Shown here one piece after another: positions 22,946 to 38,283 of a DNA stretch of 64,000 nucleotides; position 1 is the stretch's first letter, and each line of letters opens with the position of its first letter. The stretch covers positions 576,502 through 640,501 of the forward strand of contig CAWJQI010000005.1 in the NCBI GenBank assembly GCA_963845085.1, given 5' to 3'. This DNA is from Candidatus Fermentibacterota bacterium. Its GTDB lineage: Bacteria; Fermentibacterota; Fermentibacteria; Fermentibacterales; JCC-6. A program made the translations under genes and the position numbers. A model generated the notes under the pieces. It worked only from the letters and a program-made list of their open reading frames with translations. It had not been told where the DNA came from and made no database searches.

Positions 22946-23605
22946 ATGGAAGGGCATCGGGAAAGGCTCAGAAACCGGTTTTTGAAGGCCGGAATAAGCG
23001 GCTTCACGGAAAGGGAGGCGCTTGAGCTCCTTCTGACCTACGCGTCGCCCAGAAAGGATGCACGGCAGGTCTCGGCCGATCTGCTTGAGAAGTTCGGCAG
23101 CCTGGGAAACGTTCTCCGGCAGTCGCCGGACAACCTTCAAACGGTCACGGGGATGGGGCCTTCCTCATCCGTTCTCCTGGCGCTGGTCTACTCGCTTTCC
23201 GCGATGTCGCTCGCGCCTGAGCGCGGAAAGCTTCGGATAACAGGGCCGGAAGTGGTGAAGGAATACCTGACGAGCCACCTCGGCAGGCTCAGGCGCGAGC
23301 GTTTCTGCGCCTTCCTTCTGGACCAGGACAACACTCTTCTGTCCGAGGTGGAACTTGAATTCGGAACCGTTGACCGTGCCACCGTACACCCGAGAAACCT
23401 CGTGGAAAAGGTGATAGCCCACAACGCAACAGGGGTGATCCTCGTTCACAACCATCCCGGCGGAAGGCTCGAGGCAAGCCCTCAGGACCTCTCCCTCACG
23501 AAGGCTCTCGCAGGACTGGGCGACGAGCTCGGCTTCCGCGTGCTCGATCATTTCATAGTCACCGACTCCGGGGTGATAAGCCTCAGGGAGCGCGGCCTGT
23601 TCTGA
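22946..23605 (+). CDS. radC: RadC-family JAB-domain protein
   Basis: Trimmed to the ATG at 22946 (MEGHRERLRNRF...). It has an HhH-like N-terminus and the JAMM motif HNHPGG. Its 3' end overlaps the convergent FG-GAP gene by 23 nt. Confidence 0.8.
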   Translation: MEGHRERLRNRFLKAGISGFTEREALELLLTYASPRKDARQVSADLLEKFGSLGNVLRQSPDNLQTVTGMGPSSSVLLALVYSLSAMSLAPERGKLRITGPEVVKEYLTSHLGRLRRERFCAFLLDQDNTLLSEVELEFGTVDRATVHPRNLVEKVIAHNATGVILVHNHPGGRLEASPQDLSLTKALAGLGDELGFRVLDHFIVTDSGVISLRERGLF

Positions 23606-24518
23606 ACTCCATGAAGAAGCCCGCCCGATGACCAAGGGCGTACACCTCATCCCCGCACCATGCGCATGACGGGCAGCCCGCCGGAAGGGAATGCGATCCA
23701 CCCGGGGTGTAAAGCATGGAAGCGCCGAGCATGGCAGCAACGAGAACCCGGCCGCGGGAAACCGATACCGCCTTTGGCCCCGGGACGGCCCTGTCAAGTA
23801 CGATCCGTTCCCATGCCTCACCCGATGATCCGGGGTTCAGAAACAGGCACGCACCTCCCTGGGCGCATGCTATCCCTATGGCATCGGGGTATCCGTCGTC
23901 ATCCATGTCGGTGACCGCAACCGCCTTCACCCCGTCCCCGATGACCCCGATCAGGCTTTCGATGGGACCTTCGGGCGTATTGGCAACGAGATGAAGCCCG
24001 CTGCCGCAGCACGCTACAAGAAGGTCTTCATCACCATCGAGATCGACATCGGCGGAGGCAATTCCCCTTGCTCCCGGAAGCGATGCAAGCAGGACCGCTG
24101 CCCCCTGACCGACAAGAAAGACCCCGCCGGCATCACGGGTGACTGCCGCGATGGCGACCCCGGCTTCCCCGGCCCAGCGGGTCTCGACTGCGGCGAAGGG
24201 GCCGCCCTGAAGCGGGTGCCCGATCGTGTGCCCCGGCAGTCCGACAAGAACAAGGTCCGCTCCCCTGTCGCAGATAACGGGCCGGCCATCGAACACGGCC
24301 ACTCCCTGCGGCTCCACAAGCGAATCAGGGTATTCCTCGACGCTCCAGTCGCGTCTGTCGATGATGAACGCCCCGGGAGGATCGATGCACGAGACCACCC
24401 AGGTCCGTTCGTCAACCGATGCGATCCCGGTCGGAACACCGGGAAGCCTTGCGACGCGCTCTGCTCCGGAACCCGCCACCGCGAGCAGGGCGGCGAGAGC
24501 CGCAAGCGGGCCGTTCAC
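23583..24518 (-). CDS. Secreted FG-GAP/VCBS-repeat protein (last gene of the rSAM operon)
   Basis: 311 aa with a signal peptide and Ca-binding-type loops DVDLDGDEDLLV and VTDMDDDGYPDAIG. The start forms an ATGA overlap with the upstream gene. Confidence 0.6.
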   Translation of the reverse strand: MNGPLAALAALLAVAGSGAERVARLPGVPTGIASVDERTWVVSCIDPPGAFIIDRRDWSVEEYPDSLVEPQGVAVFDGRPVICDRGADLVLVGLPGHTIGHPLQGGPFAAVETRWAGEAGVAIAAVTRDAGGVFLVGQGAAVLLASLPGARGIASADVDLDGDEDLLVACCGSGLHLVANTPEGPIESLIGVIGDGVKAVAVTDMDDDGYPDAIGIACAQGGACLFLNPGSSGEAWERIVLDRAVPGPKAVSVSRGRVLVAAMLGASMLYTPGGSHSLPAGCPSCAWCGDEVYALGHRAGFFMEFRTGRAP

Positions 24519-25267
24519 TCTCCCCGCCGTTCAAAGCTCATCACCCTTGCCAGCGAAATGGTCTTCCTGGCGGTGTTCGCAAGCCACAGCAGCGAATAGG
24601 CGCCCAGCAGAAGGGCAAGCCCGGAGACGCCCCGGACCGTGAAGAACGATGCGGCGGCAGCCACGACAGCCAGGTTCACCCACGGGTGTATCACAAGTGA
24701 AAAGAGATGCTCGATCCTGCCCGATTCCGGATTCCTCACGAAAAGTTTCCCAAGGGCTTCTTTTTCTCCGGGCGAACCATCCGACCCGGAATGGTTGGAG
24801 AAGCTTTCAAGAAGTGTTTCCACCGCACAGAACCTCGCAACAAGCCACAGGCAGCCAACAAGCGCCCCGGCTGCCAGAGCGGGCCACCCCGCCCCGGCAC
24901 GGCAGGCCCCCAGCCCCCATGACAGGTGAAACAGGCTTCTCGAGGCTGCGTCGCCAAGCTTGTCGATGTACTCCCCCCTTGCACGGGAACAGCTTCCAGT
25001 GTACCGCGCCACCTCGCCGTCGCAGGCGTCGAGCAGGAACGAGAACTGGAGGAGCAGTGCGGCCGGCAGGGGGTTGAATGCGAACAGAACGGCACCGGTG
25101 CACGCGATCACCCCCTTCAGAATGGAGACGGTGTCAGCCCCGATGCCCAAACTGATGAAGATCCTTGTGAAATGGATGCTGACCGGCCGTATCACGTACC
25201 TTCGGTAAAGGCAGGTGTCCAGCCCGCCCGGCTGGCAGACTGCCCTCAGGTCACGCGCCGGGATCAA
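24515..25267 (-). CDS. CDP-alcohol phosphatidyltransferase family membrane protein
   Basis: The signature D-x2-DG-x2-AR-x8-G-x3-D-x3-D is present as DACDGEVARYTGSCSRARGEYIDKLGD, with several TM helices. The likely start is the TTG at 25267, which overlaps the upstream stop (TTGA). The long Arg-rich 5' extension of the tracked ORF overlaps the methyltransferase gene and is discounted. Confidence 0.75.
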   Translation of the reverse strand: MIPARDLRAVCQPGGLDTCLYRRYVIRPVSIHFTRIFISLGIGADTVSILKGVIACTGAVLFAFNPLPAALLLQFSFLLDACDGEVARYTGSCSRARGEYIDKLGDAASRSLFHLSWGLGACRAGAGWPALAAGALVGCLWLVARFCAVETLLESFSNHSGSDGSPGEKEALGKLFVRNPESGRIEHLFSLVIHPWVNLAVVAAAASFFTVRGVSGLALLLGAYSLLWLANTARKTISLARVMSFERRGE

Positions 25268-26025
25268 GGAGCGTCCGCCTTCGGAAGGCTGACTGTGGTT
25301 ACCAGCACGGCGCCCGGCAGCCTGTTCAGGGGCCAGAGCAGCGCCGAGGAGAGAAGAAAGAGACCGTGAGCGATCCTGCGGAGGATTGCCCGGCGTTCGA
25401 TGAGGTAAACGATGAAGCGGAGCTGCAGAAAAAATCCCCTTCCATGTTCCGTGACCGAAGCGTCGGAACGGTGGCGCAGAACAACGTCTCTCAGCGAGGA
25501 TACCTCCCGCTTCGGACCGTACCTCCAAAGGCCCTTCCGTTCGAGGTGCTCCATTATCAGACGGTGGAGTCGGCAGGGAGCTGCACACACGATAACAACG
25601 GAACCGCCCGGAGAGGTAACCCTGAGCGCCTCGCCCACTGCATCGGAAAGCCCTTCGTCGGACAGAAGGTCGAATACTCCGGAGCTGTATACGAGTTCGA
25701 ACGTGCAGTCTGCGAAGGGCAGACTCGTAACGCCCGCAAGCGCAAGTTCTCCGGAATGCTTCCCCGCGTGCCGGAGGGCGTGCGGAGAAATGTCCACACC
25801 GACAACCCGTGCACCGCTCCGGGCGACAAGGCCCATGACCGTTCCCGTACCGCACCCAGCCTCGAGCACGCGGTTGTTCGGGGCCACCTTTCCGGAGCTC
25901 TGGAGTTCTTCGAAGATCAGCCTTTTCAGCTCGCCCCTGCGGGAGAGGAACTCGCCGGCCGCATGGAAGGGTCCTGCGGAGGGGTGGTCAAGCCACACCT
26001 GGTCCCAGGGGTTCAGCTCAGACAT
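25264..26025 (-). CDS. Class I SAM-dependent methyltransferase
   Basis: 253 aa with motif I VLEAGCGTGTV, post-I VGVDIS, and a hydrophobic C-terminal segment. Confidence 0.75.
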   Translation of the reverse strand: MSELNPWDQVWLDHPSAGPFHAAGEFLSRRGELKRLIFEELQSSGKVAPNNRVLEAGCGTGTVMGLVARSGARVVGVDISPHALRHAGKHSGELALAGVTSLPFADCTFELVYSSGVFDLLSDEGLSDAVGEALRVTSPGGSVVIVCAAPCRLHRLIMEHLERKGLWRYGPKREVSSLRDVVLRHRSDASVTEHGRGFFLQLRFIVYLIERRAILRRIAHGLFLLSSALLWPLNRLPGAVLVTTVSLPKADAP

Positions 26026-26731
26026 TGAAGCGTTTTCCGGCCCGTTCCAGGTCTTCCGGGGTGTCGACCTCGTCCCAGAGACATCCCGTCACATCGACGA
26101 CAGCCACATCCACCGACTCGGCCAGCAGTGTCACGGCATCATCAAGCGATGCGGAAGATCCTTTTGCCCGCATCGCCGCCCCGCAGCAGGCGAACAGCCG
26201 GGGCAGCACAGAACGCCGGAAGAGAAAGATGCCCATGGACTCGCCATGACAGTCGGAAGGCGGGATGTCCTTCGACAGGCGCACGAGCCTTCCACTGTCG
26301 ACCTCGGCCTTCATAGCTTCGGGATCAATTGAAGACGGGTCAACAGGGACCACGGCGGCGGCCGATGATTCGAGGGCGGCGACAACCATGGCAGGCTCCC
26401 AGAGAAGGTCACCGTGGACGACGAGGCAGTCGGATGCGGGAAAACATGACATGAATGACCCGAGAGTGCCCGGGGCAAGGCCGAACGACGACTCAACCGG
26501 GGTTCCCCCCAGCCTTTCGGCTTCACGGCGCACAGCCTCGTGCGCGCAGACGACCGACACCTTCGACGGTGGGATGCCGATGGCTGCGAAGTTATCGAAG
26601 TGCCTCTCAAGAAGGCTTCTTCCCGCCACTTTGAGGCACGCCTTCTCCGCCCCCCCCATCCTCGTCCCCCCCCCAGCCGCCAGCACCACCGGGGACGGAC
26701 TAAGGTAACTTAGTTTGTTGATGGATACCAT
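26018..26731 (-). CDS. Nucleotidyltransferase (LicC / IPCT / MobA-like NTP_transf_3 fold)
   Basis: 237 aa with the N-terminal motif VVLAAGGGTRMGG..K and the C-terminal block WDEVDTPEDLERA, typical of cytidylyltransferases that act on phospho-alcohols. Confidence 0.7.
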   Translation of the reverse strand: MVSINKLSYLSPSPVVLAAGGGTRMGGAEKACLKVAGRSLLERHFDNFAAIGIPPSKVSVVCAHEAVRREAERLGGTPVESSFGLAPGTLGSFMSCFPASDCLVVHGDLLWEPAMVVAALESSAAAVVPVDPSSIDPEAMKAEVDSGRLVRLSKDIPPSDCHGESMGIFLFRRSVLPRLFACCGAAMRAKGSSASLDDAVTLLAESVDVAVVDVTGCLWDEVDTPEDLERAGKRFNV

Positions 26732-26786
26732 TGCAGTAATTGATTTTGCATGGATGGATCACCCTCTGTTGACACTTCCCTGACCG

Positions 26787-26815
26787 ACAATAGGCGCCCT
26801 GACTGCCATAGTCAA
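26787..26815 (-). promoter_or_regulatory. Putative internal sigma70-type promoter in the only gap of the operon
   Basis: On the minus strand: TTGACT (26815-26810), a 17-nt spacer, then TATTGT (26792-26787). It sits in the AT-richer 118-nt gap upstream of the NTP-transferase gene. Confidence 0.3.
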
Positions 26816-26849
26816 CGAAACGTGAAGGCTCGCAGGGTTTAGTTTGAGA

Positions 26850-27998
26850 TCAGCGCAACCTTTTCTCCGACAGTGCAACGAGCAGACGGAACAGGGCGTC
26901 CCATGGGCGGCGTGGAAGAACGAATTCACTCCGCGGCACACTTCCGTAAAGGGCCGGGCGCCCCGGTCCGAAAGAACTCCCCGGAAGCCTTCGGATGGCT
27001 CCGAACCGCAGGCGTGCAAGATTGGCACCCGCAATGGCGCCCCATCTTCTTCCGGCTGAAAAAGCTCTGGTCATCGAAACCGGAGTGGACCAGGGAAGGT
27101 GGGGAAAAAGGCTTATGAACACCCTTAGACCGGCATCCGATGCCGCCTTCACTGCCAGGTCCATGTCTGCGACGCCGAAATCCTTGCCCAGAGCCCTCAT
27201 GTCTGAATCAAGCCCCCCGTCGGGGCTGAAACTCACTGCGGTACAGCCCGATTCCACAAGCATTCCGGCGTACCGGGGGGAGAACCCGACCGGCGAATGG
27301 TACGCCTCCCAAGTAACTCCCGTACCCGCGATCGCCTGAGCCACCTGCTCCCCCCTCCCCGGGCTGTGGTTCAGCACGGGAGCGCAAAGAAAGATGTGCC
27401 CCACGCCTCTCTTCCTGAGCATCTCCACTTCGGAATGGAGTTCGGGCAGGCACTTGTCCCGCACTGTCCGCCCGGAAAGCGAGGGATAAACGCAGTATGA
27501 ACAATCACGCGTGCAGCCCCTTGTCACTTCCACGCCGATGGAGAGGTTGCCCTGATACGGCAGATATGGATTCAGGTCGATCAGGTCCCATCGGGGAACG
27601 GGAATTTCCTCCTCATGGTGGCCAACCGTATCGCCTGAAATGACGGGTACGGCGGCCCTCAATTCCCTGTGGAAAAGGCTGTAACCGGGTCCTCCGGCAA
27701 GCAGTTGGGAATCGGGTAGAACCGCAGCTGCAGTTCTGACCTGCGCAAGGAACGAAGGAACATAGCTGAACCTGTCGAACGGGCTTGTGGTGTCGGCGTT
27801 TCTGAGGGATATGCCGATCGTCGACGGCCTGTCCCGCGAGAGCCTCGACGCAAGCTCACGCATGGGGTCGGCAACCACGTTCAGATCGAGAACAGCGACA
27901 TCTCCGGGGGCAAGGGACGCTGCCACAGTGAGAAGCCCCAGCGGAACAACGGGGTGCTGCTTTCTTCCAAGCCAGGACTGCACCAGGAGGGTTTTCAG
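26850..27998 (-). CDS. B12-binding-domain radical SAM enzyme (class B rSAM)
   Basis: The N-terminus LKTLLVQSW...PLGLLTVAASL resembles a B12-binding domain, and the rSAM cluster motif is TRGCTRDCSYC. There is no ATG at the N-terminus. Candidate starts are the CTG at 27998 (CTGA overlap, with GAGAGGA upstream) or a GTG 5 codons downstream. The 5' extension of the tracked ORF overlaps the methyltransferase gene. Confidence 0.7.
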   Translation of the reverse strand: MKTLLVQSWLGRKQHPVVPLGLLTVAASLAPGDVAVLDLNVVADPMRELASRLSRDRPSTIGISLRNADTTSPFDRFSYVPSFLAQVRTAAAVLPDSQLLAGGPGYSLFHRELRAAVPVISGDTVGHHEEEIPVPRWDLIDLNPYLPYQGNLSIGVEVTRGCTRDCSYCVYPSLSGRTVRDKCLPELHSEVEMLRKRGVGHIFLCAPVLNHSPGRGEQVAQAIAGTGVTWEAYHSPVGFSPRYAGMLVESGCTAVSFSPDGGLDSDMRALGKDFGVADMDLAVKAASDAGLRVFISLFPHLPWSTPVSMTRAFSAGRRWGAIAGANLARLRFGAIRRLPGSSFGPGRPALYGSVPRSEFVLPRRPWDALFRLLVALSEKRLR

Positions 27999-28624
27999 GG
28001 CATCCTCTCGTAGAGTGCTGCCATCATCCGCACCATGAGCAGCCCCCGGGACGGCTTCCGGCCAGCCGCCTCCATGAAACGCCGCTTCGGCCAGCAGCGC
28101 TCGACGAGCCTGAAGCCGGACTCGGCGAATCTCGAGTCCCAATCGGGCCAGGTCAGGTGAAACTCGTCGTTCCCCTGCATGAATCTGATTCGTTTCGCCT
28201 CGAGCTCGGATCTGGTCGGATCGGTGAACGCCCAGTCTTCGAGAAGAAGGAAACAACCATCCGGCATGAGCACCCGGTGAGATTCTTCGAGAGTTCTCGC
28301 GAGGTCGTTCGTGTTCATGTGATGAAGCACCGCCATGGCAAGAACAGCATCGAATGAACCGTTTTTGAAAGGAAGTTCGGCGGGATCCGTGCAAAGGGCT
28401 GTTGACGCAGGTGCGTTAACTTTTACGAAGGGCATGAAAGCCTCGGAGACATCGGTACACACCAGAAGTTGCGGCGAGAGGCGTCCGGATGCCAGCGCAG
28501 GACCGCATCCGATCTCAAGGATCCGCTCCCTCCCGTGAAGCATTCCGACAACCCGGTCATCGGCGGGTGACGCCTTTCTTCCGGCTGTATACTCCAAAAC
28601 CCTTTCCCGGCTCCATCCCTTCAA
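27995..28624 (-). CDS. Class I SAM-dependent methyltransferase
   Basis: 209 aa with motif I ILEIGCGPALAS and Methyltransf_11-like blocks (FDAVLAMAVLHH, LMPDGCFLL). Confidence 0.75.
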   Translation of the reverse strand: MKGWSRERVLEYTAGRKASPADDRVVGMLHGRERILEIGCGPALASGRLSPQLLVCTDVSEAFMPFVKVNAPASTALCTDPAELPFKNGSFDAVLAMAVLHHMNTNDLARTLEESHRVLMPDGCFLLLEDWAFTDPTRSELEAKRIRFMQGNDEFHLTWPDWDSRFAESGFRLVERCWPKRRFMEAAGRKPSRGLLMVRMMAALYERMP

Positions 28625-29796
28625 CGGGCTTCCTCGCCATGCCCAATGGACTGTGCAAGAGGCACGTCAGCCCTTCTGCAGAGGCTTTCGAACAGGTTGG
28701 CAATGAACGCACGGGTCGGCATTCCCAATGGAGACGGCATCCCTTCCTCGATTGTCCTCGAAATGGCATCGAGCAGTGGAAGCGTCCAGAGGCAGTTCCT
28801 CCGGTCGGGACCTGCGCCCCCCCGTGCAAGATGGATCCCATCCCAGGTGCAGCCTCCCCCGCAGATTCCCAACGCAGGGCATTCAGCGCAATCGGGATAG
28901 TTAACCGGGTTCAGGCGGCTCCAATCGGTGATGCTCCGTGTGTTAACACAACTGCTGATCGTGCCATCCGGGCGGAATACAAGTTTTCCGCTCTGAGCCG
29001 AGCAGTCACGATGCCTGAACATCCCGGTCACGATGGGGAGAAGCCTTCGCGCAACCTGGTCAACGAACACCCCCGTATCCAGGCTGAAGTGATAGGCTCC
29101 GACGACAATCCGGCCGTACTCCTCCCCGCTTATCGGATCAAAGGACGACGGCGTGAAGTGTTGAATGTTCACGCCGAAACTCACGGGGTGAAACCTCTCA
29201 AGCAGCAGATAAAGCGATTCGGGCAGCGAGCCATTGTTGTGGGAACCCGTGACAAGTGAAACTCCAGCGGGCAGGCCGATTTCCAAGGCGAGATCGAGGG
29301 CGCGCGCGGCACCCTTCCAGGAGTCTCCCCTGTAAATGCAGTGTTCCTTCTCAAGACCGTCCATTGACACAACCAGCGCCGTCCCTCTGTCCTTGAGAAA
29401 CTGAGCTGTTTCCCTGTCCAGAAGGGTTCCGTTGGTAAAGAGAACGGCCTGTCCACCCCATCTTTCCAACAGGGCCATGACTGCGCGTGGGTGAAGAAGG
29501 GGCTCGCCACCGGTCACGAGAAGAAGCACATCGGGATCGGAATGGGCAAGGATCGCGTCGAGGGTGGCCGAACTCATGTCTCCTTTGAAGCCGCCTGCAA
29601 TCCTGGCACTGCAGTACTCACAAGAGAGGTTGCACCTTCCGGTTACAACGGCCTGAACGGCCCTCAACCGGAGCGGAGGTTCAGGGGGAGGCTCGACAGG
29701 TCCGCCCGAGGGAGGTGAACCGCCGAAAAAGAACTGGTTTGAATACCGGTTCACAAAGCAGTTCTCCCTGAGCCTTGCCCAGCCTGTTCCGATCAC
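28621..29796 (-). CDS. Radical SAM / SPASM-domain enzyme (paralog 3)
   Basis: 391 aa with the cluster motif GRCNLSCEYC, the GGEPLL block, and a C-terminal SPASM motif CAECPALGICGGGC. Confidence 0.8.
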   Translation of the reverse strand: MIGTGWARLRENCFVNRYSNQFFFGGSPPSGGPVEPPPEPPLRLRAVQAVVTGRCNLSCEYCSARIAGGFKGDMSSATLDAILAHSDPDVLLLVTGGEPLLHPRAVMALLERWGGQAVLFTNGTLLDRETAQFLKDRGTALVVSMDGLEKEHCIYRGDSWKGAARALDLALEIGLPAGVSLVTGSHNNGSLPESLYLLLERFHPVSFGVNIQHFTPSSFDPISGEEYGRIVVGAYHFSLDTGVFVDQVARRLLPIVTGMFRHRDCSAQSGKLVFRPDGTISSCVNTRSITDWSRLNPVNYPDCAECPALGICGGGCTWDGIHLARGGAGPDRRNCLWTLPLLDAISRTIEEGMPSPLGMPTRAFIANLFESLCRRADVPLAQSIGHGEEAR

Positions 29797-31085
29797 CTGA
29801 GTTCTCCTCCCAGCATGGCTTCGGGTTGCGGCATGCGCTCCCTGTCAAGAATACCGACCGGAAGAAAGGCCTGCATATCCACCGGGGACAGAACACCGGA
29901 AGCCCCGCCTTTGGCCACGCCGTCAAGGATTGTACCCAGCATCCAGCTGAGAAGTGCCCTCTCAAAACTGCAGCGCTGCTCACGCACGCCGGACAGGCTG
30001 CCCGTGCAGACCATTGAATCGTAAAGACACCCGCCGCCGCAAAGAGCGACGCATGGACACGTCAGGCAATCATCCCTGAATACTGGGACAAGCCTTGAAA
30101 ACCTTTTCAGAATTGCCGGGATTGATTCAGGGTCTGAAACCGTGTACATGCCTGCGGCCGCCATGCAGTCGCACGGGCTTATCCCTCCGCCGGGGGTGAA
30201 GACCAGTCTGCCGCCCCTCGAAGGGCAGTCCCTAAGCCTGGGGGAAGCCGTCACCAGCGGTCTTAGCCTTCTGAAGAGCTGCTCGACGTAAACACCCTTC
30301 GACAGCGCATCGGAAAGACACCCTGTGACTGCATCGAACACATCCTCCCATCGGGCCTCGAACGGATTCTCAGGACCGCACGGTTTCGGGTGCATCCAGA
30401 TGTTGAGCCCGATGTCGTCAGGTTTCATTGTGTCAAGAAGAAAACCAAAGTCATCCCTCACGCTGGATGCGTTGCCCTTTGTGACGGTAAGACTTATCCC
30501 GACGCGGCAACCCGCGTTTCTGAAAGCATCGAAAGACTTCAGGGCTTCTTCGAAGGAGTTTCCTCCGCACAGCGGCCTCAGGGAATTATGAAGCTTTTCC
30601 CGGCCGTCGATGCTCACAATGGCGAAGCCATTCCTTTCGGCAAGCATCTCATCCAGCATCCGGGGATGCTTCCAGCCTCCCGTTGCAAGGGAGAGGTTGA
30701 GATCATCCCGGGATTCCCTGATGACGCGCATGACCAGTTCCGGCTCAAGCAGCGGCTCACCTCCGTATATGAGGATGTCCGCACCCCTCCCGGCCTGCCC
30801 TGCAAAAATGGTCAGTCCGTTCGAAACCTCCCCATCGGTCATGCTTCCCATCGAAGGGGGAACAAAGCAGTAGCAGCACTTTCTGGGACAGCGCCCCGTA
30901 AGAAAGAACGTTGCCATTGTAACGCCGGATGAAACACAGAAATCCCTGTACTTCCCGAGCAGTTTTCCGGCGTCGAACGGAGAAGGTTCTCCCGGCCTTA
31001 TGCACACCTCCAGCGTAAGCGCATTGAATACGGCTTCAATCCCGCCCGGGGATGTAAAGTGATGAAGAAAAACTTCTCCGTTCAT
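29793..31085 (-). CDS. Radical SAM / SPASM-domain enzyme (paralog 2, with ~65-aa N-terminal extension)
   Basis: 430 aa with the cluster motif GRCPRKCCYC, the block YGGEPLLEP, and a C-terminal motif CLTCPCVALCGGGC. Confidence 0.8.
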   Translation of the reverse strand: MNGEVFLHHFTSPGGIEAVFNALTLEVCIRPGEPSPFDAGKLLGKYRDFCVSSGVTMATFFLTGRCPRKCCYCFVPPSMGSMTDGEVSNGLTIFAGQAGRGADILIYGGEPLLEPELVMRVIRESRDDLNLSLATGGWKHPRMLDEMLAERNGFAIVSIDGREKLHNSLRPLCGGNSFEEALKSFDAFRNAGCRVGISLTVTKGNASSVRDDFGFLLDTMKPDDIGLNIWMHPKPCGPENPFEARWEDVFDAVTGCLSDALSKGVYVEQLFRRLRPLVTASPRLRDCPSRGGRLVFTPGGGISPCDCMAAAGMYTVSDPESIPAILKRFSRLVPVFRDDCLTCPCVALCGGGCLYDSMVCTGSLSGVREQRCSFERALLSWMLGTILDGVAKGGASGVLSPVDMQAFLPVGILDRERMPQPEAMLGGELR

Positions 31086-32113
31086 TCAGCGGGCATGCCG
31101 ATCAACGTGCAGAGGTAGCCGGCGTGAATGAATTGGTCAGCACAGCCCTCGGTTGTCTTCAACAATGGAGGGGAAATGCCCCTGAGATGAAAACAGTACT
31201 CATCCGGGCTCGAAAGCCCGGTGTAGTACCTTCTACCGGCACACCCTCCCAGGCAGTAATCCTTCCACGGGCAAGCTCCGCATTCCCCCGGCATGGCGAC
31301 GGCATGACACATGTCTCCGCAGGATGAAAGCAGATCAGGGTTTGTGCCGACCTGTTCGATGGAGAGCCCGGTTTGACCCCAGTACACACAGGGGAGAACC
31401 TCCCCGTGCGGTGAAACCCTGAAACCGTGAAGCCCGCAGGGCGAACCGAGAGTGGAAACCGGTCGGCCGTGAAATGCAAGCGCGGCATTGACAATCGGTT
31501 CAGAGCACGCCAGAACGGATGTCTCTTCGAAAAGCACCGACACAGCGCTCCAGAAGTCATCGTACGACGGCTTCAGCCCGGCATCGAAAACCGGCTTGTA
31601 TACGTTCACCCGAAGAGGCAAACGCGCTTCGCGGGCAAACCGGCACATGTCCCTCATGCAGCCTGCATTCCCCTTCATGAGACACATGGCGAGCGATGCG
31701 GTCACTCCGAGTTCCCTGCAGCGGATTATCCCGTCCTCCACCATGCGGAACGCACCAGTCGCCCTCGTGGCATCGTGCAGCCCTTCGTTCGGGTAATCAA
31801 GCGAAAGGTCCACGTCATGCAGGCGCGAGAGCATCCCGTCGGACATCGCGAGAAGGCTTGGACCGGCGGTCGTAAGGGCCAGGGGGATCCCCCTCTGAAG
31901 AATGGCATCGACAACCTGCAGAAATTCCGGATGCATGCACGATTCGCCGGTTCCGAGGTTGATCGCTGCCGGCGGCATCTTGTCGATAAAGCGGAACAAC
32001 CTTGCGGAATCGAGGTGCACGGGGTTCCTGCCTGCACCTGAATAGCAGTGGGGACAGGTGAACGGGCATGCAGATGTGAGTCCGACACCGATGGAATAGC
32101 GGCGGCCTGTCAT
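31082..32113 (-). CDS. Radical SAM / SPASM-domain enzyme (paralog 1)
   Basis: 343 aa with the cluster motif SACPFTCPHC and a C-terminal motif CGACPWKDYCLGGC. Confidence 0.8.
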   Translation of the reverse strand: MTGRRYSIGVGLTSACPFTCPHCYSGAGRNPVHLDSARLFRFIDKMPPAAINLGTGESCMHPEFLQVVDAILQRGIPLALTTAGPSLLAMSDGMLSRLHDVDLSLDYPNEGLHDATRATGAFRMVEDGIIRCRELGVTASLAMCLMKGNAGCMRDMCRFAREARLPLRVNVYKPVFDAGLKPSYDDFWSAVSVLFEETSVLACSEPIVNAALAFHGRPVSTLGSPCGLHGFRVSPHGEVLPCVYWGQTGLSIEQVGTNPDLLSSCGDMCHAVAMPGECGACPWKDYCLGGCAGRRYYTGLSSPDEYCFHLRGISPPLLKTTEGCADQFIHAGYLCTLIGMPAE

Positions 32114-32901
32114 TGCACCCCCATTTCGCGCAGTGCGCTCTTCAATGAGTTGGCAATATAATCGCCAGGGGATGATGGCAAATCGAAAAGATCGACCACA
32201 ATCGGTCCGGAATAACCGTTCCCGGCAAGGCTCGGAAGGAGTTCAATCCACGGGAATCCGCCTTCTCCGGGAAGAAGGTGAACGTGATCCCGTCCCGAGA
32301 TATCCTCGACATGCGTATGCACAAGACTGCCGCCCGACCTTTTCACGGCTTCACAGGGCCGCAGGCCGTCAAGGAAACAGTGCCCGAAGTCAAGGTTGAC
32401 CCCCGCCCTGTCGCCAACGCTGGCCACCAGTTCGCCAAATGCGGTCAGGTCGGCCAGAACGGTTCCGGGTTCGGGCTCCCAGGCTGGTCTCAGGCTTCCC
32501 GGCAACTCGCCCAGAAGCCACACGCACTCCTCCAAAAATGATGCCCATGACGCCTGGGCCGAAAGAGGGGAACCGAGCACGAGCACACTGGCATCGAGTT
32601 CGACCGCTTTCTCAATGGCGCGGGAAATGCCTGCCCTCCTGGCGAAGGCGCCATCCTTCTTGCCATGATAGCTGACCGCCGACAGTCGCAGACCGCACAG
32701 ATCACCACGGTACGATGAAGCGCCCGGGTGTTCCATGCAGTACTCGACAAGCGAATAGCCCGCCCCGGCGATCAATTCCAGAGCATGTTCCACAGAAAAC
32801 CCGCGCAGCCCCGCCGTCCTGAATCCAAGCCTGTCGGAAACGGACTCAACATCCCCGGCAGATCGATCCATACCCATGTCAGCCGATACTCCGTCAATCA
32901 T
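32110..32901 (-). CDS. Xylose-isomerase-like TIM-barrel protein (sugar-phosphate isomerase/epimerase, AP_endonuc_2 superfamily)
   Basis: Trimmed to the ATG at 32901, an 8-nt overlap with the upstream stop. Blocks GYSLVEY, NLDFGH and HTHVEDISGRDHVHLLPGEG fit the metal-binding TIM-barrel family that includes IolE and IolI. Confidence 0.7.
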   Translation of the reverse strand: MIDGVSADMGMDRSAGDVESVSDRLGFRTAGLRGFSVEHALELIAGAGYSLVEYCMEHPGASSYRGDLCGLRLSAVSYHGKKDGAFARRAGISRAIEKAVELDASVLVLGSPLSAQASWASFLEECVWLLGELPGSLRPAWEPEPGTVLADLTAFGELVASVGDRAGVNLDFGHCFLDGLRPCEAVKRSGGSLVHTHVEDISGRDHVHLLPGEGGFPWIELLPSLAGNGYSGPIVVDLFDLPSSPGDYIANSLKSALREMGVQ

Positions 32902-35224
32902 TTTCTGCCTTCGACAGCGCACCCACGGGACAGGCTGAGGCGCAGGGGGAGTCGGGGCAGCCGATGCAGGCCCGGGTGAAAAACGGGCGGAACGCCTCGA
33001 AATCACCGGGGCATTCTGCAACCACGATGCCTCCGGCGCCTTTGGAAAGCCCAAGCTTCTGAAGGCACGCGATCTCGCAGGCCCTGCATCCCGTGCACCA
33101 TTCCGGGCAAACGACAACGCTCGCGTTTTCAGCGCTGACCGAAAAGACAACGGGTTCCGAAGGACGGGAGAGCAACTCCGGTCCGGAGGTGATACTGCAG
33201 GGAATGCATCGGAAGGGGTACCCGAGCCCTCCTCTTCCCTGCATGCCGTGGGGCAGCAGATCGTTCACGTTCAGCATGCGCCCGGTCTCTTCGGGCAGGC
33301 CGGGCGGCCACCAGCCGTGCTGCGCCATGATGGTACCCGCCGGTACTTTCCGGGTGAGACGGACAACCCTGCCGCAGCTTCCCCAGGGGGAACGCAGGGT
33401 TGCCCATTCTCCGTCGCCCACTCCGTACGCAGCGCCATCTGCGGGATTGACCTCGACGAGAGGAAGGGGATTTCGCTCAAGCAGGCACTCGACGTTCCTG
33501 TGCTCGGAGTGGAAGAACACAGGTGTTCGCGCCCCGGTGGTCAGCACGAGGGGGTGGGCGTCGTCCACGGGCGGGGGCTCGACATACCAGGGCGCAGGAA
33601 GCAGCCCCGCCTTCCCCATCACCCCGGGTTGAAGCTCGACAAGCCCGGACGGTGTTGGATAGCCTGGCTTTCCGTCAGCTCTGAGCAGCCCTTTTTCGTG
33701 CTTCGCATACTCGGTCCCGGGCATCACCCAGCCACGATGCGAAAGCTCGTCCCAGGTCATCCCCGAAGGCTCAAGGACATGGTCGAACCAGCTCTTCACA
33801 TCCTTCCAGGGGAACGCATCCGGCGCCACCCGCCTTCCGAAGTCAAGAACGATCTCCATGTCACTTCGTGCTTCGCCCTGCGGTTCCACAGCCTTGTTCA
33901 CCGCAGCCAGCTGGTACCACCAGTTGCGAATGCCGTTCCGTTCCGGATAACAGGCAACCGGCAGGAACACGGTGCCGAACTGCTCTGCCGTCGGGGTCAT
34001 GAAAAGGTCGCACACCACAACCTCGCCGATGCGTGAAAGAAGCCGTGCTGCCCTGGAAGGCGCTGCAAAACCGTTCACAACCGTTCCCGATCCCTGCACC
34101 CACGCGCATTTGACGGGTCTTCCCGCCTCCATCTCATCAAGGAGGACATCAGAACTGGCATACGGAAAGCCCATCGTGGTCATGGGATACCGTGATGCAC
34201 CCGTCTTTCCCCCGGGGGGCTCTATCCCTCCCCTCCTGGGTATCCCGAACGGGTCAGTCGTGATGACGCACCCCCCGGGTATGTCCAGATTGCCAGAGAG
34301 CGCGACCAGGGAAGCAAGGGCATGGGAGGTTCCCAGAGCCGACGGGCTCATGTCGACAGAAACACCCCAGTGAAGCGAGGCCGGGTGCGCGTTCAGCCAG
34401 AGGTCGGCCGCACGTGCGATCACGTCAGGTTCAATCCCGCACTCCCTTGATGCGGTTTCAAGGTTCCAGGAGCTCGCTGCTTCAAGTGCGCCGTCAACTC
34501 CTGAAACCCATTTTTCGGCAAAACCCGCGTCAAGACAGCCGGTTCGATGCATGCGCGTCATGAACGCCATCGCAAGGGCTCCGTCAGTTCCGGGCCTGAT
34601 CCGAAGGTGGACAGCCGCCTTTCCGGCAAGCCATGTGTTCCGCGGATCGACCACTACAAGCCTTGATCCCAGCTTCATGCACTCGACGAGCCATTTCCCC
34701 AGAAAACCGTCGGGATTCGACGCCACAGGGTTGGAGCCCCACACAAGGATGCACTCCGGCAGCTTCCAGGAAGAATTCTCGTATCGGTCAGGGAAATACT
34801 GGGAGCAGTCCGCAGTGAAAAAGCCCCCGAACAGCGACGCGCAAACGCTCATCCGGGGCATGAGACAGGCCGAACCCGACCCCGGACCGAGCGCGTAGTA
34901 CTCCGGGCTTCCGAATCCGCCAGCCAGCCTGCTAAGCCAGGGACCTATGTCCCGTCCTGTCCCCTTGAGGAAGAGCACGGACCTCGGACCGCAGGTTTCC
35001 CGAGCTTCCAGAAAGGAATCCGCTGCTCGTTGAAGGGCTTCATTCCAGGTGGCCCTTTTCCAGCTGCCACCTTTTGAGCGCACCATGGGGTGAAGCACTC
35101 TGGCCGGGTCGTAAAGGGTTCCGATAACAGCAAGCCCCCTGGGGCACATGCTTCCCCTGTTGTAGGGGTTGTCAGGGTCGCCCCGGACTGCTGTGACCCT
35201 GCCTCCGGAAACGCTGAGCACCAC
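32894..35224 (-). CDS. Molybdopterin/tungstopterin (bis-PGD) oxidoreductase fused to a C-terminal 2x[4Fe-4S] ferredoxin domain; true 5' end lies upstream
   Basis: 776 aa from the GTG at 35224. It has the blocks GDPDNPYNRGSMCPRG and VWGSNP, a molybdopterin dinucleotide-binding C-terminal region, then CTGCRACEIAC and CIGCPDSPCASACP. The conserved N-terminal Cys cluster (VCTTPPGCHCGCG) is encoded in frame upstream of the GTG (35225-35262), so the called start is too short (see finding). Confidence 0.8.
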   Translation of the reverse strand: MVLSVSGGRVTAVRGDPDNPYNRGSMCPRGLAVIGTLYDPARVLHPMVRSKGGSWKRATWNEALQRAADSFLEARETCGPRSVLFLKGTGRDIGPWLSRLAGGFGSPEYYALGPGSGSACLMPRMSVCASLFGGFFTADCSQYFPDRYENSSWKLPECILVWGSNPVASNPDGFLGKWLVECMKLGSRLVVVDPRNTWLAGKAAVHLRIRPGTDGALAMAFMTRMHRTGCLDAGFAEKWVSGVDGALEAASSWNLETASRECGIEPDVIARAADLWLNAHPASLHWGVSVDMSPSALGTSHALASLVALSGNLDIPGGCVITTDPFGIPRRGGIEPPGGKTGASRYPMTTMGFPYASSDVLLDEMEAGRPVKCAWVQGSGTVVNGFAAPSRAARLLSRIGEVVVCDLFMTPTAEQFGTVFLPVACYPERNGIRNWWYQLAAVNKAVEPQGEARSDMEIVLDFGRRVAPDAFPWKDVKSWFDHVLEPSGMTWDELSHRGWVMPGTEYAKHEKGLLRADGKPGYPTPSGLVELQPGVMGKAGLLPAPWYVEPPPVDDAHPLVLTTGARTPVFFHSEHRNVECLLERNPLPLVEVNPADGAAYGVGDGEWATLRSPWGSCGRVVRLTRKVPAGTIMAQHGWWPPGLPEETGRMLNVNDLLPHGMQGRGGLGYPFRCIPCSITSGPELLSRPSEPVVFSVSAENASVVVCPEWCTGCRACEIACLQKLGLSKGAGGIVVAECPGDFEAFRPFFTRACIGCPDSPCASACPVGALSKAEND

Positions 35225-35384
35225 ACCGCAGCCGCAATGGCACCCCGGCGGAGTGGTACAGACCGTTCTAACCTCGGTGCAGTGACAGCCGGTGATAAAG
35301 CCCTCCCTGCATCTGCCTGAAAGTCACGACCACAGCGGAATATGGCCCTTCATCGCGGGCTGCCCAAGCCGCTTGTGAAGGGGA

Positions 35385-38283
35385 TCACCTCGACCCGCCC
35401 GCTTCGCGAAGCACGGTGCAGATCACATCCCTGTAGGCACCCGAGTTTGACTCAAGGGCTGAGTTGCGGGTCAAACCGTAGAGAAATGCGATGTCCCGTG
35501 TGAGAAGCTCGCAACAGCCCTGTACCACCCCGGCTGAGCCGTGCGCCGTGGCGATCATGTCGATGAGCCGCACCATGGCGGGATCGAATGCAAGCATTTC
35601 CAGCCTGTCGGCGGGGAGCGGTCGAACCCCGATGTCACGCGAACCAAGCCTGAACCTCTGTCTGAGGAGGAATACACGGAGCAGGGTTGAGTCGGGGTGC
35701 GATGAGGACATCGAATCCACGATGCCGTACATCCTGTCCAAAACCCCTCCACCAACCAGGGGCAACGCTCCCCGAAGCCCGGATACACCGGACGCACAGG
35801 GTCCACCCAGCCCCACCCAGAAATCATGGACACTGTCGACCCTGGTCGGTTCATGGTGAAGAACGTACGCCTGTCGGGCAAAGCTCAGAGATGAATAAAG
35901 AGTGTTGTCGATGATCAAAGCGTCATCAAAAAGCTGCTCAAGAAGCCCCATGTCTGCAGAGTCACCCTCGAGGGCGATCATGGCACCGAAAACAAGATGC
36001 TCGCCCCGTCCCGGCCATGCCAGCACCCTGTGCCATCCGAACTCACGCAGCGCCAGGCTGAGCTCTCCCAGAAGCACGCCGGTACCAGGATCGCCGGATT
36101 CAGCCGAGAGGGCGCAGAGGGCGTACCGGTGGTAGGGGGCGAAGGCCGGGCTGTTTTCAACGACTTCGCGACAGCGTTCTTGAAGCGACTGGTCCGTGCC
36201 GGAATTCACGTCCTCGAGTATCCGGCGTGACTCGGCGGCCAGTTGAAGCTCGCTTTGAACCGCAGGGCGGACAAGCGCAACAATCCCCTCAGGAAGCGTA
36301 TCCAGAGATGCCACATAGACAGAGGCAAGCGTATCGGCCGCCTGTGCCGACTCGTGGCTGCACAGGGCGAGGGCAAGAAGCATCCCCGACGCTGCCCTGC
36401 GCACCCTCAAATCAAAACCCTCGCTGCCGGATCGGTCACTTCGGGATATCGTGCGCAGGAACACACCGGTGTTAAAGGCATCGTACCGGTACCCCGTGGT
36501 AAACGGAGCGATCCGGTGAACGAGCAACTCACAGTAATCACGAAGATGTGCCCGCCTCGAGTGGATATAAACGGCCTCGGCGAGCGCCCCGTCGTAATCA
36601 CCAGTCATGACGAGGGCGTGAAGCCTGTTCAGACGCATGTCCGAGAAGTCGGGCGCCATGACGGACAGGCTGTCATAACAATCCAGAGCGAACCCCAGGC
36701 TTGCTCTCGCCCCGGCTGTGTCGGCCGGAGCGCCTGAACACCCCGCCCCGAGAATGGAAGCCCTTGCAAGAGCGGCGTTTCCCAGCGTGAAACGGCTCGC
36801 GTACTCCCAGTCGCACAGATCGATCGAAAGCATGCACTCTCGCATGGCCATTTCGCATGCATCCAGAGCTTCATCCCTTGCGGTGGCGGGATCCATGACG
36901 CCATCCGCCAAAATGGCCGGCACCCGGTCAAGGAACTCCGTTTTGGCACGATACAGGTGCCTCGAGGACCGAATCATCCCGAACGTTGTCGGAGTGCCGA
37001 AGGCCAGAAGAAGTGCAGCCCCTGCGATGGGGAAAACGACCGATGCCCGGGGCAGCCGGAACCTCTCCTCCGGGGTTCCTCCGGAGAGGGGAACCGCTGC
37101 AAATACTGCAAGAAGAAACGGTGTGGAGCTCCACCTCAGAGAAACGGAAACAAAGCTCTCAACGACTATGAACACCACACCGGAAACAGCAGCCAGATCG
37201 GTGGTTGTCCAGCTGCGGCGCCTTGACAGCACGGCTCCGATCCACAGGATGAAGAGACCGCCCCAGACGGCAAGCCCGAGAAGACCAGTTTCCGCGGCAA
37301 CCTCCATCATTTCGCTGTGAGCATGGACTGTGTTGGAAGTCACACCGGCCGCCTGGTAGCCGGGGGATCGGAACAGGGGAAAAACGCTTTGAAATGAGCC
37401 TTCGCCCCAGCCGAAAAACGGTTTCTCGAGAAACATGTCATACGCGCCCCGCCAGATCACCTGCCTGACCGCGAGCGTTTCATCCGACGGCGAAAGGTCG
37501 CGCATCCTGGCGCTTAGAAACATGCCTGCCGCAAGAACAAGCAGGCACAAAAGTGCAATCAGACGGAGTTTCTGCCTGTCTGCAGGCCGGATCTTCCTTT
37601 CGGGAGCCCAGAAGGGCCAGGCACACGAAGACGGCTGATGCGATCCCGAAGGCCAGCATGCTGCCTCTCGTACCGCTCTGAATAAGCAGCGTTCCGCACA
37701 ATGCACCGAACAGAACGGAAACCATGAACCCGGGCACCGAACGGCCCCTTCCGCCGCCAAACAGAAGCAACCCTGGCAGGAGAAGCGAGCCCGCAAAACT
37801 GCCCAGCAGATTGGCGTTGCCGAGAGTGCCGGGATTTCTCGCCGCACCGCCGGACGGAACAAAGTCGCCGAGGGACAGGCCCGCCCCGATTGCAGCCGAT
37901 ACAACCAAAGCCGGGAGCGCTGCGAACAGCAAAACGGATAGAACAGCTCTTTTGTCGCCATCCTCCCGCAGCCCTGTGAAAACAAGGAATATCCCGGCGC
38001 AGGAGAGAGTGATGAACAACCTGGTCAGCCCCGAGGAAGTGAACGGGCTGGCGAGTACACGGATCGAAGTGAGCAGAACTCCGATCAGAAGCATCAGAAC
38101 CACGGGAGCTGTTCCCCGGCGCATGACCAGCCCCGTTTTGAACGCATGCGAAAAGGCCGCCACAAGAATCAGCCCGGTGCATGTCACGAGAGCGAACAGC
38201 TTCGGGAGGGTGGAATCGACGCTGCGTGGAAGCACGGCGAGCGAGATGCACACGGTACAGACGGCGAGCAATGCTCGAATCAT
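35385..38283 (-). pseudogene. O-antigen-ligase (Wzy_C)-like polytopic protein with ~700-aa helical/TPR-like C-terminal domain; reading frame broken once
   Basis: ORF 37480-38379 (start trimmed to the ATG at 38283) encodes TM helices and GTLGNANLLGSF. ORF 35385-37985 continues with more TM helices (LIALLCLLVLAAGMF, FFGWGEGSF, VHAHSEMMEVAAETG). The frames switch near 37575-37610; removing one base (for example from the AAA in GAAAGG) joins ..LALLGSRRKIRPADRQKLRLIALL.. Confidence 0.7.

Follow-up and report, generated by a model that had tools for sequence, protein, structure and literature searches.

The 64-kb stretch of Candidatus Fermentibacterota DNA analyzed here (64,000 nucleotides of contig CAWJQI010000005.1; hereafter the window) contains a cassette of eleven co-directional genes, G1 to G11, in which three radical S-adenosylmethionine (SAM) enzymes of the SPASM type are combined with a molybdenum/tungsten (Mo/W) enzyme, a TIM barrel, a class-B-type radical SAM enzyme, two methyltransferases, and a nucleotidyltransferase and cytidine diphosphate (CDP)-alcohol phosphotransferase pair. 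A sequence-only reading of this DNA had presented the genes as an orphan operon. That description was not borne out. The cassette, comprising ten conserved genes and one lineage-specific gene, recurs in two or more candidate phyla and among further uncultured, unclassified anaerobes: we found it in Fermentibacteria, in candidate division LCP-89 and in high-GC metagenome-assembled genomes (MAGs). Since the gene set is co-conserved across phyla, the arrangement is not due to chance. All of its parts belong to known superfamilies and its activation and transfer logic is known; the combination is uncharacterized. On the basis of gene families and motifs we favor, at a little under even confidence, a reading in which the cassette would make a sugar or polyol phosphate that is activated with a nucleotide, tailored by radical SAM enzymes and installed as a phosphodiester.

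Gene content and layout of the cassette

Domain calls were based on Pfam and NCBIfam profile searches, and the NCBIfam equivalog scan took in G1 to G10. The cassette holds no unassigned gene and comprises the following features.

23583-35296, minus strand: the eleven-gene cassette G1-G11, all genes co-directional, about 11.7 kb
32894-35296 (probable start), minus strand: G1, cytoplasmic bis-molybdopterin guanine dinucleotide (bis-MGD) Mo/W enzyme with an N-terminal Fe4S4 domain and a fused C-terminal 2x[4Fe-4S] ferredoxin-like domain
32110-32901, minus strand: G2, xylose-isomerase-like TIM barrel of the metal-dependent keto-sugar epimerase/isomerase/dehydratase type (PF01261, AP_endonuc_2)
31082-32113, minus strand: G3, radical SAM/SPASM type 1 (Radical_SAM), CxxxCxxC from residue 16
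29793-31085, minus strand: G4, radical SAM/SPASM type 2 (Radical_SAM), radical SAM motif from residue 66
28621-29796, minus strand: G5, radical SAM/SPASM type 3 (Radical_SAM), radical SAM motif from residue 55
27995-28624, minus strand: G6, class I SAM methyltransferase by domain search
26850-27998, minus strand: G7, class-B-type radical SAM enzyme, BzaD/TsrM/AprD4-like, with a Rossmann B12-like domain and a radical SAM core; start at CTG 27998 or GTG 27983
26732-26849, minus strand: the sole intergenic gap, 118 nt, between G7 and G8
26018-26731, minus strand: G8, IPCT/LicC-like nucleotidyl (cytidylyl) transferase (PF12804, NTP_transf_3)
25264-26025, minus strand: G9, class I SAM methyltransferase by domain search
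24515-25267, minus strand: G10, membrane CDP-alcohol phosphotransferase (PF01066, CDP-OH_P_transf, 28.1 bits against a cutoff of 22)
23583-24518, minus strand: G11, hydrophobic N-terminus, signal-peptide-like by eye; FG-GAP_3 borderline (26.3 bits against a cutoff of 26.9)

The open reading frame (ORF) list and the sequence place all eleven genes on the minus strand. Recomputing the junctions reproduced the layout reported earlier, that is, eleven minus-strand ORFs joined by short overlaps with a single 118-nt gap. G1/G2 (32901/32894) and G8/G9 (26025/26018) overlap by 8 nt each, and overlaps of 4 nt occur at 32113/32110, 31085/31082, 29796/29793, 28624/28621, 27998/27995, 25267/25264 and 24518/24515. 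The gap is a variable junction dividing two sub-operons, and transcription of the cassette probably yields two units, G1-G7 and G8-G11. The gap contains a sigma70-like element, TTGACT-17-TATTGT (26815-26787), although the count of such promoters was not above chance. The GC content of the cluster (0.607) equals that of the 64-kb window (0.605).

Recurrence of the cassette across genomes

We scanned one genome per GTDB species and then searched with all eleven proteins by tblastn. Homologues of G7 carry the names Candidatus Fermentibacteraceae, Aegiribacteria and Sabulitectum. The gene-neighborhood check proposed in the sequence-only reading gave a clear result: the identical eleven-gene order is kept in about 20 Fermentibacteria, Aegiribacteria and Sabulitectum loci at 40-80% identity, with further copies on metagenome contigs. 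The flanks of these loci vary: the window and its closest relatives have Wzy_C and RadC genes there, and Aegiribacteria and a lineage of 70% GC have unrelated ones. In candidate division LCP-89 (GCA_005223185.1) all genes but G11 are present, ten of eleven, in the order G7-G1-G2-G3-G4-G5-G6-G8-G9-G10. Four high-GC loci carry G1, G2, the SPASM types, G6 and G8 in rearranged and interleaved form, with differing orders and strands, and usually a G7 and a G10-like gene as well; these loci come from MAGs labelled Deltaproteobacteria (L029) and 'Rickettsiales' (L027) and from metagenome contigs (L072/L092 and L074). Across the orthologues, every signature residue of the radical SAM, SPASM, Fe-S and CDP-alcohol motifs is invariant. 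G11 had been listed as an FG-GAP gene of the operon; it is translationally coupled to the cassette, as that implied, but it is found only in Fermentibacteria versions and falls outside the conserved set. It had no NCBIfam match at all.

The position of the sole gap between G7 and G8, the sigma70-like promoter within it, and the unrelated insertions that relatives carry at exactly this junction could be taken to mean that G1-G7 and G8-G11 are adjacent but unrelated operons. In close relatives the junction holds an insert of about 600 nt (L001 11115-11756, L012 11067-11636) that holds an opposite-strand ORF, 53% identical over 118 amino acids between the two genomes and without a Pfam or Rfam match, and in a Sabulitectum MAG (L017 7439-8956) a repeat protein of the type IX secretion system (T9SS) is inserted at the same place. 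We nevertheless consider unrelated operons very improbable. Homologues of G8 and G10 are interleaved with or adjoin those of G1-G7 in varied orders (L029, L027, L073, L074 and L092). In the high-GC loci G8 lies between or beside G1-G7 homologues, and this placement outside the phylum indicates that the two halves of the cassette are not independent. Two transcription units are compatible with one pathway, whereas co-occurrence across phyla contradicts unrelated operons. Gene fusions also support a single pathway: G8 and G9 form a single 486-residue protein in L004, and G1 (with its ferredoxin-like module) and G2 are joined in one reading frame in L085 and in a 1017-residue database protein (P0064).

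A riboswitch or structured RNA in the G7-G8 gap was considered and rejected, as Rfam at gathering score was empty in the window and in three related loci; the insert of the relatives behaves instead as an opposite-strand ORF. No Rfam family reached gathering score anywhere in the 64-kb window (1-64000). A defense system (prokaryotic viperin or similar) was likewise rejected. PADLOC gave only generic radical SAM and methyltransferase matches (25-52 bits), and the position of the cassette is syntenic and stable in the phylum with a GC content equal to background, which further disfavors this reading.

As the earlier reading had supposed, no characterized cluster matched: none of G1-G10 reached an NCBIfam equivalog, no paper was found on this gene set, and the Hyd24-12 genome paper makes no mention of it. 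The searches thus returned no known cluster, no set of unrelated operons and no conserved precursor ORF.

Three SPASM enzymes with no precursor peptide gene found nearby

G3, G4 and G5 had been described as tandem paralogues with an N-terminal CxxxCxxC motif and a C-terminal SPASM-type cysteine cluster, and both features hold. The motifs CPFTCPHC, CPRKCCYC and CNLSCEYC and three C-terminal CxxCx5Cx3C blocks are present, the seven-cysteine SPASM motif for two auxiliary clusters (Cx9-15Gx4C ... CxxCx5Cx3C ... C) is complete in all three proteins, and none of the ten cysteines varies among 13-15 orthologues drawn from several phyla. G3 (28.4 bits) and G4 (29.7 bits) pass the SPASM model TIGR04085 (cutoff 27); PF13186 gave no Pfam match in G3-G5. 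By profile searches the three types are 1:1:1 orthologues, with exactly one of each per complete version of the cassette, which implies that the three paralogues are ancient and non-redundant. The G3 family is rare (51 representatives at E<=1e-30 among 1.84 billion), and the G3 type is represented by one gene in four of five outgroup clusters (L027, L029, L072 and L073) and by none within the L074 DNA examined.

SPASM enzymes are mostly peptide maturases, and the cassette could in principle encode a ribosomally synthesized peptide that is modified post-translationally (RiPP) or a peptide-derived cofactor of the mycofactocin or PQQ type, in which the SPASM enzymes would cross-link and the methyltransferases decorate a peptide whose precursor gene is remote, very short or divergent. 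G3-G5 have weak generic matches to MftC, PapB, AhbC/NirJ, MoaA, BlsE, viperin, anSME and SkfB; their best NCBIfam models include the MftC, PapB, FibroRumin and SCIFF maturases (56-66 bits against cutoffs of 265-400), and their PDB matches include SkfB and CteB. We regard this explanation as improbable. The overlapping genes leave no room for a precursor gene, as had been argued from the sequence, and the 118-nt gap contains no credible ORF. When small ORFs of 18-130 amino acids outside the cassette genes were compared within 2.5 kb at 21 loci, no candidate was conserved between lineages. No cassette protein has a Pfam match to PqqD or a RiPP recognition element (RRE), none of the genes encodes a protease or an exporter, and G3 is not extended at its N-terminus. 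The lack of a conserved small ORF, an RRE or a peptide-processing gene makes an ordinary RiPP cluster unlikely, and the cytidylyltransferase, CDP-alcohol transferase, TIM barrel and Mo enzyme would have no role in one, yet they are co-conserved with the SPASM genes and fused.

A Mo/W enzyme probably of the acetylene hydratase/catechol dehydroxylase clade

The assignment of G1 as a Mo/W oxidoreductase was confirmed at the level of domains (Molybdop_Fe4S4, Molybdopterin, Molydop_binding and, weakly at the C-terminus, Fer4_9) and could be refined. Its sequence matches and features suggest that G1 belongs to the acetylene hydratase/catechol dehydroxylase clade of bis-MGD enzymes, with the ferredoxin partner fused to it. 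The top PDB sequence match was acetylene hydratase (2e7z, E=3e-44), and G1 is about 39% identical to Mo enzymes of Gordonibacter and other Eggerthellaceae. Cysteines 22, 28, 32, 60, 153 and 709 are invariant in the orthologue alignment, as is the cysteine aligned with the tungsten ligand of acetylene hydratase. The position of acetylene hydratase Asp13 is a His in all G1 orthologues, within a conserved GCH[CN]GCG motif, so strictly speaking G1 is not itself an acetylene hydratase. The protein begins right at its Fe-S motif and has no twin-arginine translocation (TAT) signal.

The Gordonibacter catechol dehydroxylases are of the two-subunit soluble Mo+Fer4 type and form a clade, sister to acetylene hydratase, that is also found in natural-product clusters (PMC7028382). 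G1 shares with these dehydroxylases and with acetylene hydratase the absence of a TAT signal, a length of about 740-800 amino acids, the N-terminal Fe4S4 domain, the aligned cysteine and the small 4Fe-4S partner, and differs from them in the C-terminal fusion of the ferredoxin, the His in place of Asp13, the radical SAM cassette around it and, in some versions, a TIM-barrel fusion. The ferredoxin-like module occupies the C-terminal 80 or so amino acids (32894-33140 of the window) and is fused, encoded by a separate small ORF, or absent from the locus, depending on lineage (loci examined: L001, L073, L072 18640-19020, L029 9564-9995 and L074 from 9552). It was not detectable in the locus in L001, from the closest relatives, or in LCP-89. 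Relatives of G1 at about 40% identity consist of a soluble Mo enzyme with a small 4Fe-4S protein, often together with a major facilitator superfamily (MFS) transporter. These homologues, which form stand-alone Mo+Fer4(+MFS) modules, were rejected as copies of the cassette.

G1 is the best-conserved member of the cassette, at 46-80% identity, and is present in every version. Several lineages have a MobA-like twelfth gene between G10 and G11 (about 190 amino acids, a molybdenum cofactor guanylyltransferase; 68 bits to TIGR02665), located at L005 13475-14053 and also found in L004, L009, L014, L015 and L017, though not in the cassette of the window. Its presence inside some cassettes fits G1 as an active bis-MGD enzyme. 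Both observations might also suggest that the other genes serve to mature G1, by post-translational modification or by supplying a modified pterin or cofactor, in the manner of the enzymes that modify methyl-coenzyme M reductase (MCR) or of anSME. The fold of G7 resembles the MCR glutamine methylase MgmA, and G5 weakly matches a radical SAM maturase of tungsten-cofactor oxidoreductases as well as MoaA. Still, maturation of G1 seems to us rather unlikely, given that Mo+Fer4 homologues about 40% identical to G1 work with no such partners and that the IPCT-like enzyme, the membrane CDP-alcohol transferase and the sugar-epimerase-like TIM barrel, which some lineages have fused to G1, would be left unexplained.

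A TIM barrel related to keto-sugar enzymes

G2 had been assigned to the IolE/IolI superfamily of TIM barrels. Its identity as a xylose-isomerase-like sugar enzyme stands (PF01261, 59.9 bits against a cutoff of 31.1), but IolE/IolI are more distant from it than ketose 3-epimerases, UlaE and MJ1311 are. The top PDB sequence match was MJ1311 (3wqo). The AlphaFold2 (AF2) model of G2 has a predicted local distance difference test (pLDDT) score of 92.8, and its nearest folds are SCO6571, MJ1311, the L-xylulose-5-phosphate 3-epimerase UlaE, D-tagatose/psicose 3-epimerases and the dehydroshikimate dehydratase AsbF; the Foldseek probability against the ketose 3-epimerases, UlaE and AsbF was 1.00. Residues E142/E144, D171, H174, H197/E199 and H206/H208 are invariant and conform to the E/D/H/E metal-ligand pattern. 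Relatives of this fold act beside a carbonyl on sugars.

TIM barrels with all of the invariant residues of G2, at 33-38% identity, also occur in a trio with a PCMT-like methyltransferase and a PHP domain protein, located at L094 9324-11555 in Armatimonadetes (GCA_900174595.1), a conserved context unrelated to the cassette. This context suggests that the G2-type barrel belongs to a wider uncharacterized family. Homologues of G2 at this level of identity were tried as a means of locating more cassettes and were rejected on account of the Armatimonadetes case.

Methyltransferases and a class-B-type radical SAM enzyme

A B12-dependent radical SAM enzyme and two class I methyltransferases had been proposed for G7, G6 and G9. 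Domains and fold agree, with the qualification that an AprD4-like dehydratase is an equally good reading of the "B12" enzyme. G6 adjoins the Mo enzyme in all non-Fermentibacteria versions except that of LCP-89. G7 matches Radical_SAM in Pfam, with a B12-binding match below threshold (21.4 against 32.1 bits). Its AF2 model (pLDDT 94.2) shows an N-terminal Rossmann domain and a radical SAM core, and its fold neighbors are TsrM first, AprD4 (a cobalamin-free 1,2-diol dehydratase) second, and then MgmA, TokK and OxsB. In sequence terms G7 and the benzimidazole methylase BzaD are distant sisters: G7 scores 132 bits where the BzaD cutoff is 450, and the orthologue from LCP-89 scores 256 bits. AprD4 is the top PDB sequence match and as close a relative as BzaD. 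With both TsrM and AprD4 near it, G7 may be a C-methylase or a dehydratase. An enzyme of tetraether or ladderane lipids was rejected for G7, as the fold search returned no lipid-acting radical SAM enzyme and TIGR04072 scored 107 against 360 bits.

A G7 relative of 29% identity lies in an apparent bzaC-bzaD-bzaE-type arrangement (L006 8470-12828), where an O-methyltransferase with DUF2284 is followed by two B12-radical SAM genes beside corrinoid-methyltransferase genes. This locus is an outgroup that marks the end of the association of G7 with the cassette.

The relationship to BzaD raises the question of whether the product is a soluble cofactor or a (hetero)aromatic ligand, for example a variant of the cobamide lower ligand or nucleotide loop or a quinone-like ring, made anaerobically and with a phosphodiester formed as in cobamides (CobY/CobS) or F420 (CofC/CofD). 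BzaD is the nearest characterized relative of G7, with the bzaC-bzaD-bzaE-type locus at 29% identity; TsrM, the top structural match, methylates an aromatic carbon; the clade of G1 dehydroxylates catechols; G2 has weak matches to CbiR and AsbF, and the LCP-89 orthologue of G8 has one to CobY. These matches are all weak and generic. No BzaA/B, CobT, CobS or other corrin or flavin gene is present in any version of the cassette, and G8 and G10 are consistently nearest to inositol-phosphate enzymes. We judge a cofactor of this kind unlikely.

A putative activation and transfer pair resembling inositol-phosphate enzymes

The proposal of a LicC/IPCT-like nucleotidyltransferase and a CDP-alcohol transferase held for both genes. 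G8 is nearest to IPCT: its best NCBIfam model is the bifunctional IPCT/DIPPS protein NF041135 (59 bits, with the cutoff at 580; the LCP-89 orthologue reaches 91 bits), and its top PDB sequence match is the inositol-1-phosphate cytidylyltransferase IPCT of Archaeoglobus fulgidus (2xme). G10 is nearest to the DIPPS domain of the bifunctional protein, AF2299 and archaetidylinositol-phosphate synthase (AIPS). It has four or more hydrophobic segments and an intact DxxDGxxARx9GxxxDxxxD motif that fits the family signature D(x)2DG(x)2AR(x)7-12G(x)3D(x)3D, with DACDGEVARYTGSCSRARGEYIDKLGD conserved in 11 orthologues. Its best NCBIfam models are AIPS, DIPPS and PIPS, with 28 bits to NF041135 (cutoff 580), and its top PDB sequence matches are 4mnd and 4o6m.

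Proposed pathway

We hypothesized that the cassette encodes a single route to a tailored phosphodiester, in which the substrate class, the order of steps and the acceptor are predictions set beside the observed gene content, families, motifs, co-conservation and fusions. G8 would convert an alcohol phosphate and cytidine triphosphate (CTP) to a CDP-alcohol, the nucleotide of which would then serve as a handle. G3, G4, G5 and G7 would carry out oxygen-independent steps on the CDP-linked scaffold, candidates for which are oxidation of an alcohol to a ketone, 1,2-diol dehydration or deoxygenation, C-methylation and C-C rearrangement. Precedents exist for three elements of this scheme: Fom3 acts on cytidylylated hydroxyethylphosphonate (HEP) and illustrates the nucleotide handle in radical SAM tailoring, BtrN performs a radical SAM alcohol dehydrogenation, and AprD4, by its PDB description, a diol dehydration. 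G2 may enolize, epimerize or dehydrate beside the new carbonyl, and G1, wired through its own ferredoxin domain, may remove or add a hydroxyl reductively or hydrolytically. The fusion of G1 to G2 suggests that these are consecutive steps, with enolization or epimerization followed by hydroxyl removal or addition. G6 and G9 would methylate, G6 during remodeling of the sugar or polyol moiety, and G10 would transfer the phospho-alcohol at the membrane to an acceptor. A membrane lipid or envelope component is the most likely acceptor, and otherwise a second polyol phosphate; the product may possibly be a soluble di-polyol phosphate. Weak hints of a membrane or surface product come from the envelope genes found beside the cassette in several lineages (Wzy_C, MurJ, LPG_synthase_TM and a lipid A acyltransferase).

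Several observations weigh against this hypothesis. Every family match lies far below its equivalog cutoff (59 against 580 bits for G8, 132 against 450 bits for G7). Searches of two outgroup loci (L027 and L072) turned up no G10, G9 was found only in Fermentibacteria and LCP-89, and the six-frame translation of the 64-kb window contained no MIPS signature motif. The flanking envelope genes vary by lineage and may be coincidental. AIPS and PIPS, the enzymes closest to G10, use a CDP-lipid donor, in which case G8 would not be needed, and SPASM enzymes for the most part modify peptides or proteins. The polyol or cyclitol phosphodiester proposed earlier thus gains from the IPCT/DIPPS-like pair and the sugar-type TIM barrel, while the product itself stays a prediction. 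Even so, a single route to a nucleotide-activated sugar or polyol phosphate is the interpretation we favor, and whatever probability is not taken up by it and the four alternatives discussed above falls to something else.

A bolder version can be put forward only tentatively and is rather less likely to be right. It holds that this is a new anaerobic route in which a CDP-tagged sugar or cyclitol would be oxidized, deoxygenated and C-methylated by the three SPASM enzymes, the class-B-type enzyme and the catechol-dehydroxylase-like Mo/W enzyme, with the fused or neighboring TIM barrel as its partner, to yield a new class of deoxy-/methyl-carbocyclic or aromatized phospho head group on lipids or envelope glycans of uncultured anaerobes.

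Start codons and flanking genes

Three further features lie at and beyond the upstream end of the cassette.

35324-35326, minus strand: in-frame TGA that interrupts the G1 ORF previously begun at ATG 35353
35385-37985, minus strand: Wzy_C membrane protein (O-antigen ligase/polymerase-like), 866 amino acids, directly upstream, with a long C-terminal extension
38321-40477, minus strand: BNR/Ycf48-like repeat protein, 718 amino acids, with a T9SS C-terminal sorting domain, upstream of G1

The junction coordinates given earlier were sound. The cassette does not extend to 35353, and position 27998 proved to be a CTG. No ATG, GTG or TTG lies between the TGA (35326-35324) and the invariant Fe-S cysteines of G1. 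The first canonical start is GTG 35224, use of which would lose three of the four Fe-S cysteines. ATC 35296 lies 4 nt past a strong AGGGAGGG, and the orthologues of G1 start 5-15 residues ahead of the same VRTVCTTPPGCHCGCG motif. From this context G1 probably starts at ATC 35296; the missing canonical start reflects either a true ATC start or an assembly indel. ATG 35311 is out of the G1 frame and opens an ORF of just 14 codons. For G7, the CTG at 27998 is homologous to the ATG start of its orthologues, and a database protein identical to G7 (P0001, 377 amino acids) is called from GTG 27983, a start that would replace the 4-nt overlap on the G6 side with an 11-nt spacer.

The stop of the Wzy_C gene is 88 nt from G1, and in L001 the two genes overlap. 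This neighbor is retained in the closest relatives only.

Relation to known systems and significance

The synthesis of di-myo-inositol phosphate by IPCT/DIPPS in A. fulgidus and Thermococcales (2xme, 4mnd, 4o6m) uses the same pairing of a cytidylyltransferase with a membrane CDP-alcohol phosphotransferase. In contrast to IPCT/DIPPS, G8 and G10 are separate genes here, and a methyltransferase gene either lies between the two or is joined to G8; radical SAM, TIM barrel and Mo partners are lacking from the DIPPS systems, and the hosts of the cassette are mesophilic anaerobes. Kennedy-type head-group routes (bacterial LicC/CPT) combine a methyltransferase, a cytidylyltransferase and a CDP-alcohol phosphotransferase, the same three activities as the G8-G9-G10 block, whereas the head group here would seemingly be made by seven further enzymes.

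Non-peptide radical SAM enzymes that act on polyol or nucleotide-tagged substrates, as proposed for G3-G5 and G7, include AprD4 (paromamine 1,2-diol dehydratase), BlsE, MoaA and viperin; BtrN and Fom3 are likewise non-peptide enzymes. The cassette differs from these sugar and nucleotide tailoring systems in showing no equivalog-level similarity to them and in having no aminoglycoside or phosphonate genes. With AhbC/AhbD/NirJ there is already a case of several SPASM paralogues working one after another on a single non-peptide molecule, a tetrapyrrole, although the cassette has no tetrapyrrole genes and G3-G5 score 25-51 bits against cutoffs of 500-650. Three full SPASM enzymes, each with the seven-cysteine motif, are unusual in one non-peptide cassette.

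If the proposed pathway is correct, it would bring together elements not combined before: a peptide-free trio of ancient, non-redundant SPASM enzymes, a Mo/W enzyme of the acetylene hydratase/catechol dehydroxylase type, an epimerase-like barrel and a pair for activation and transfer of the inositol-phosphate type. The substrate range known for SPASM enzymes and for the Mo-enzyme clade of G1 would widen. The bolder version would in addition be the first three-SPASM pathway to a non-peptide, non-tetrapyrrole product and the first biosynthetic role of that Mo-enzyme clade on a carbohydrate-derived substrate. The compactness of the cassette (about 11.7 kb, ten conserved genes) makes it a realistic target for heterologous expression. 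For the organisms themselves, the proposed pathway would mean that at least two candidate phyla and other abundant, unclassified uncultured anaerobes, among them digester and sediment Fermentibacteria, LCP-89 and the MAGs labelled Deltaproteobacteria, carry a novel membrane or surface constituent, which might serve as a lipid or metabolite biomarker for these lineages.

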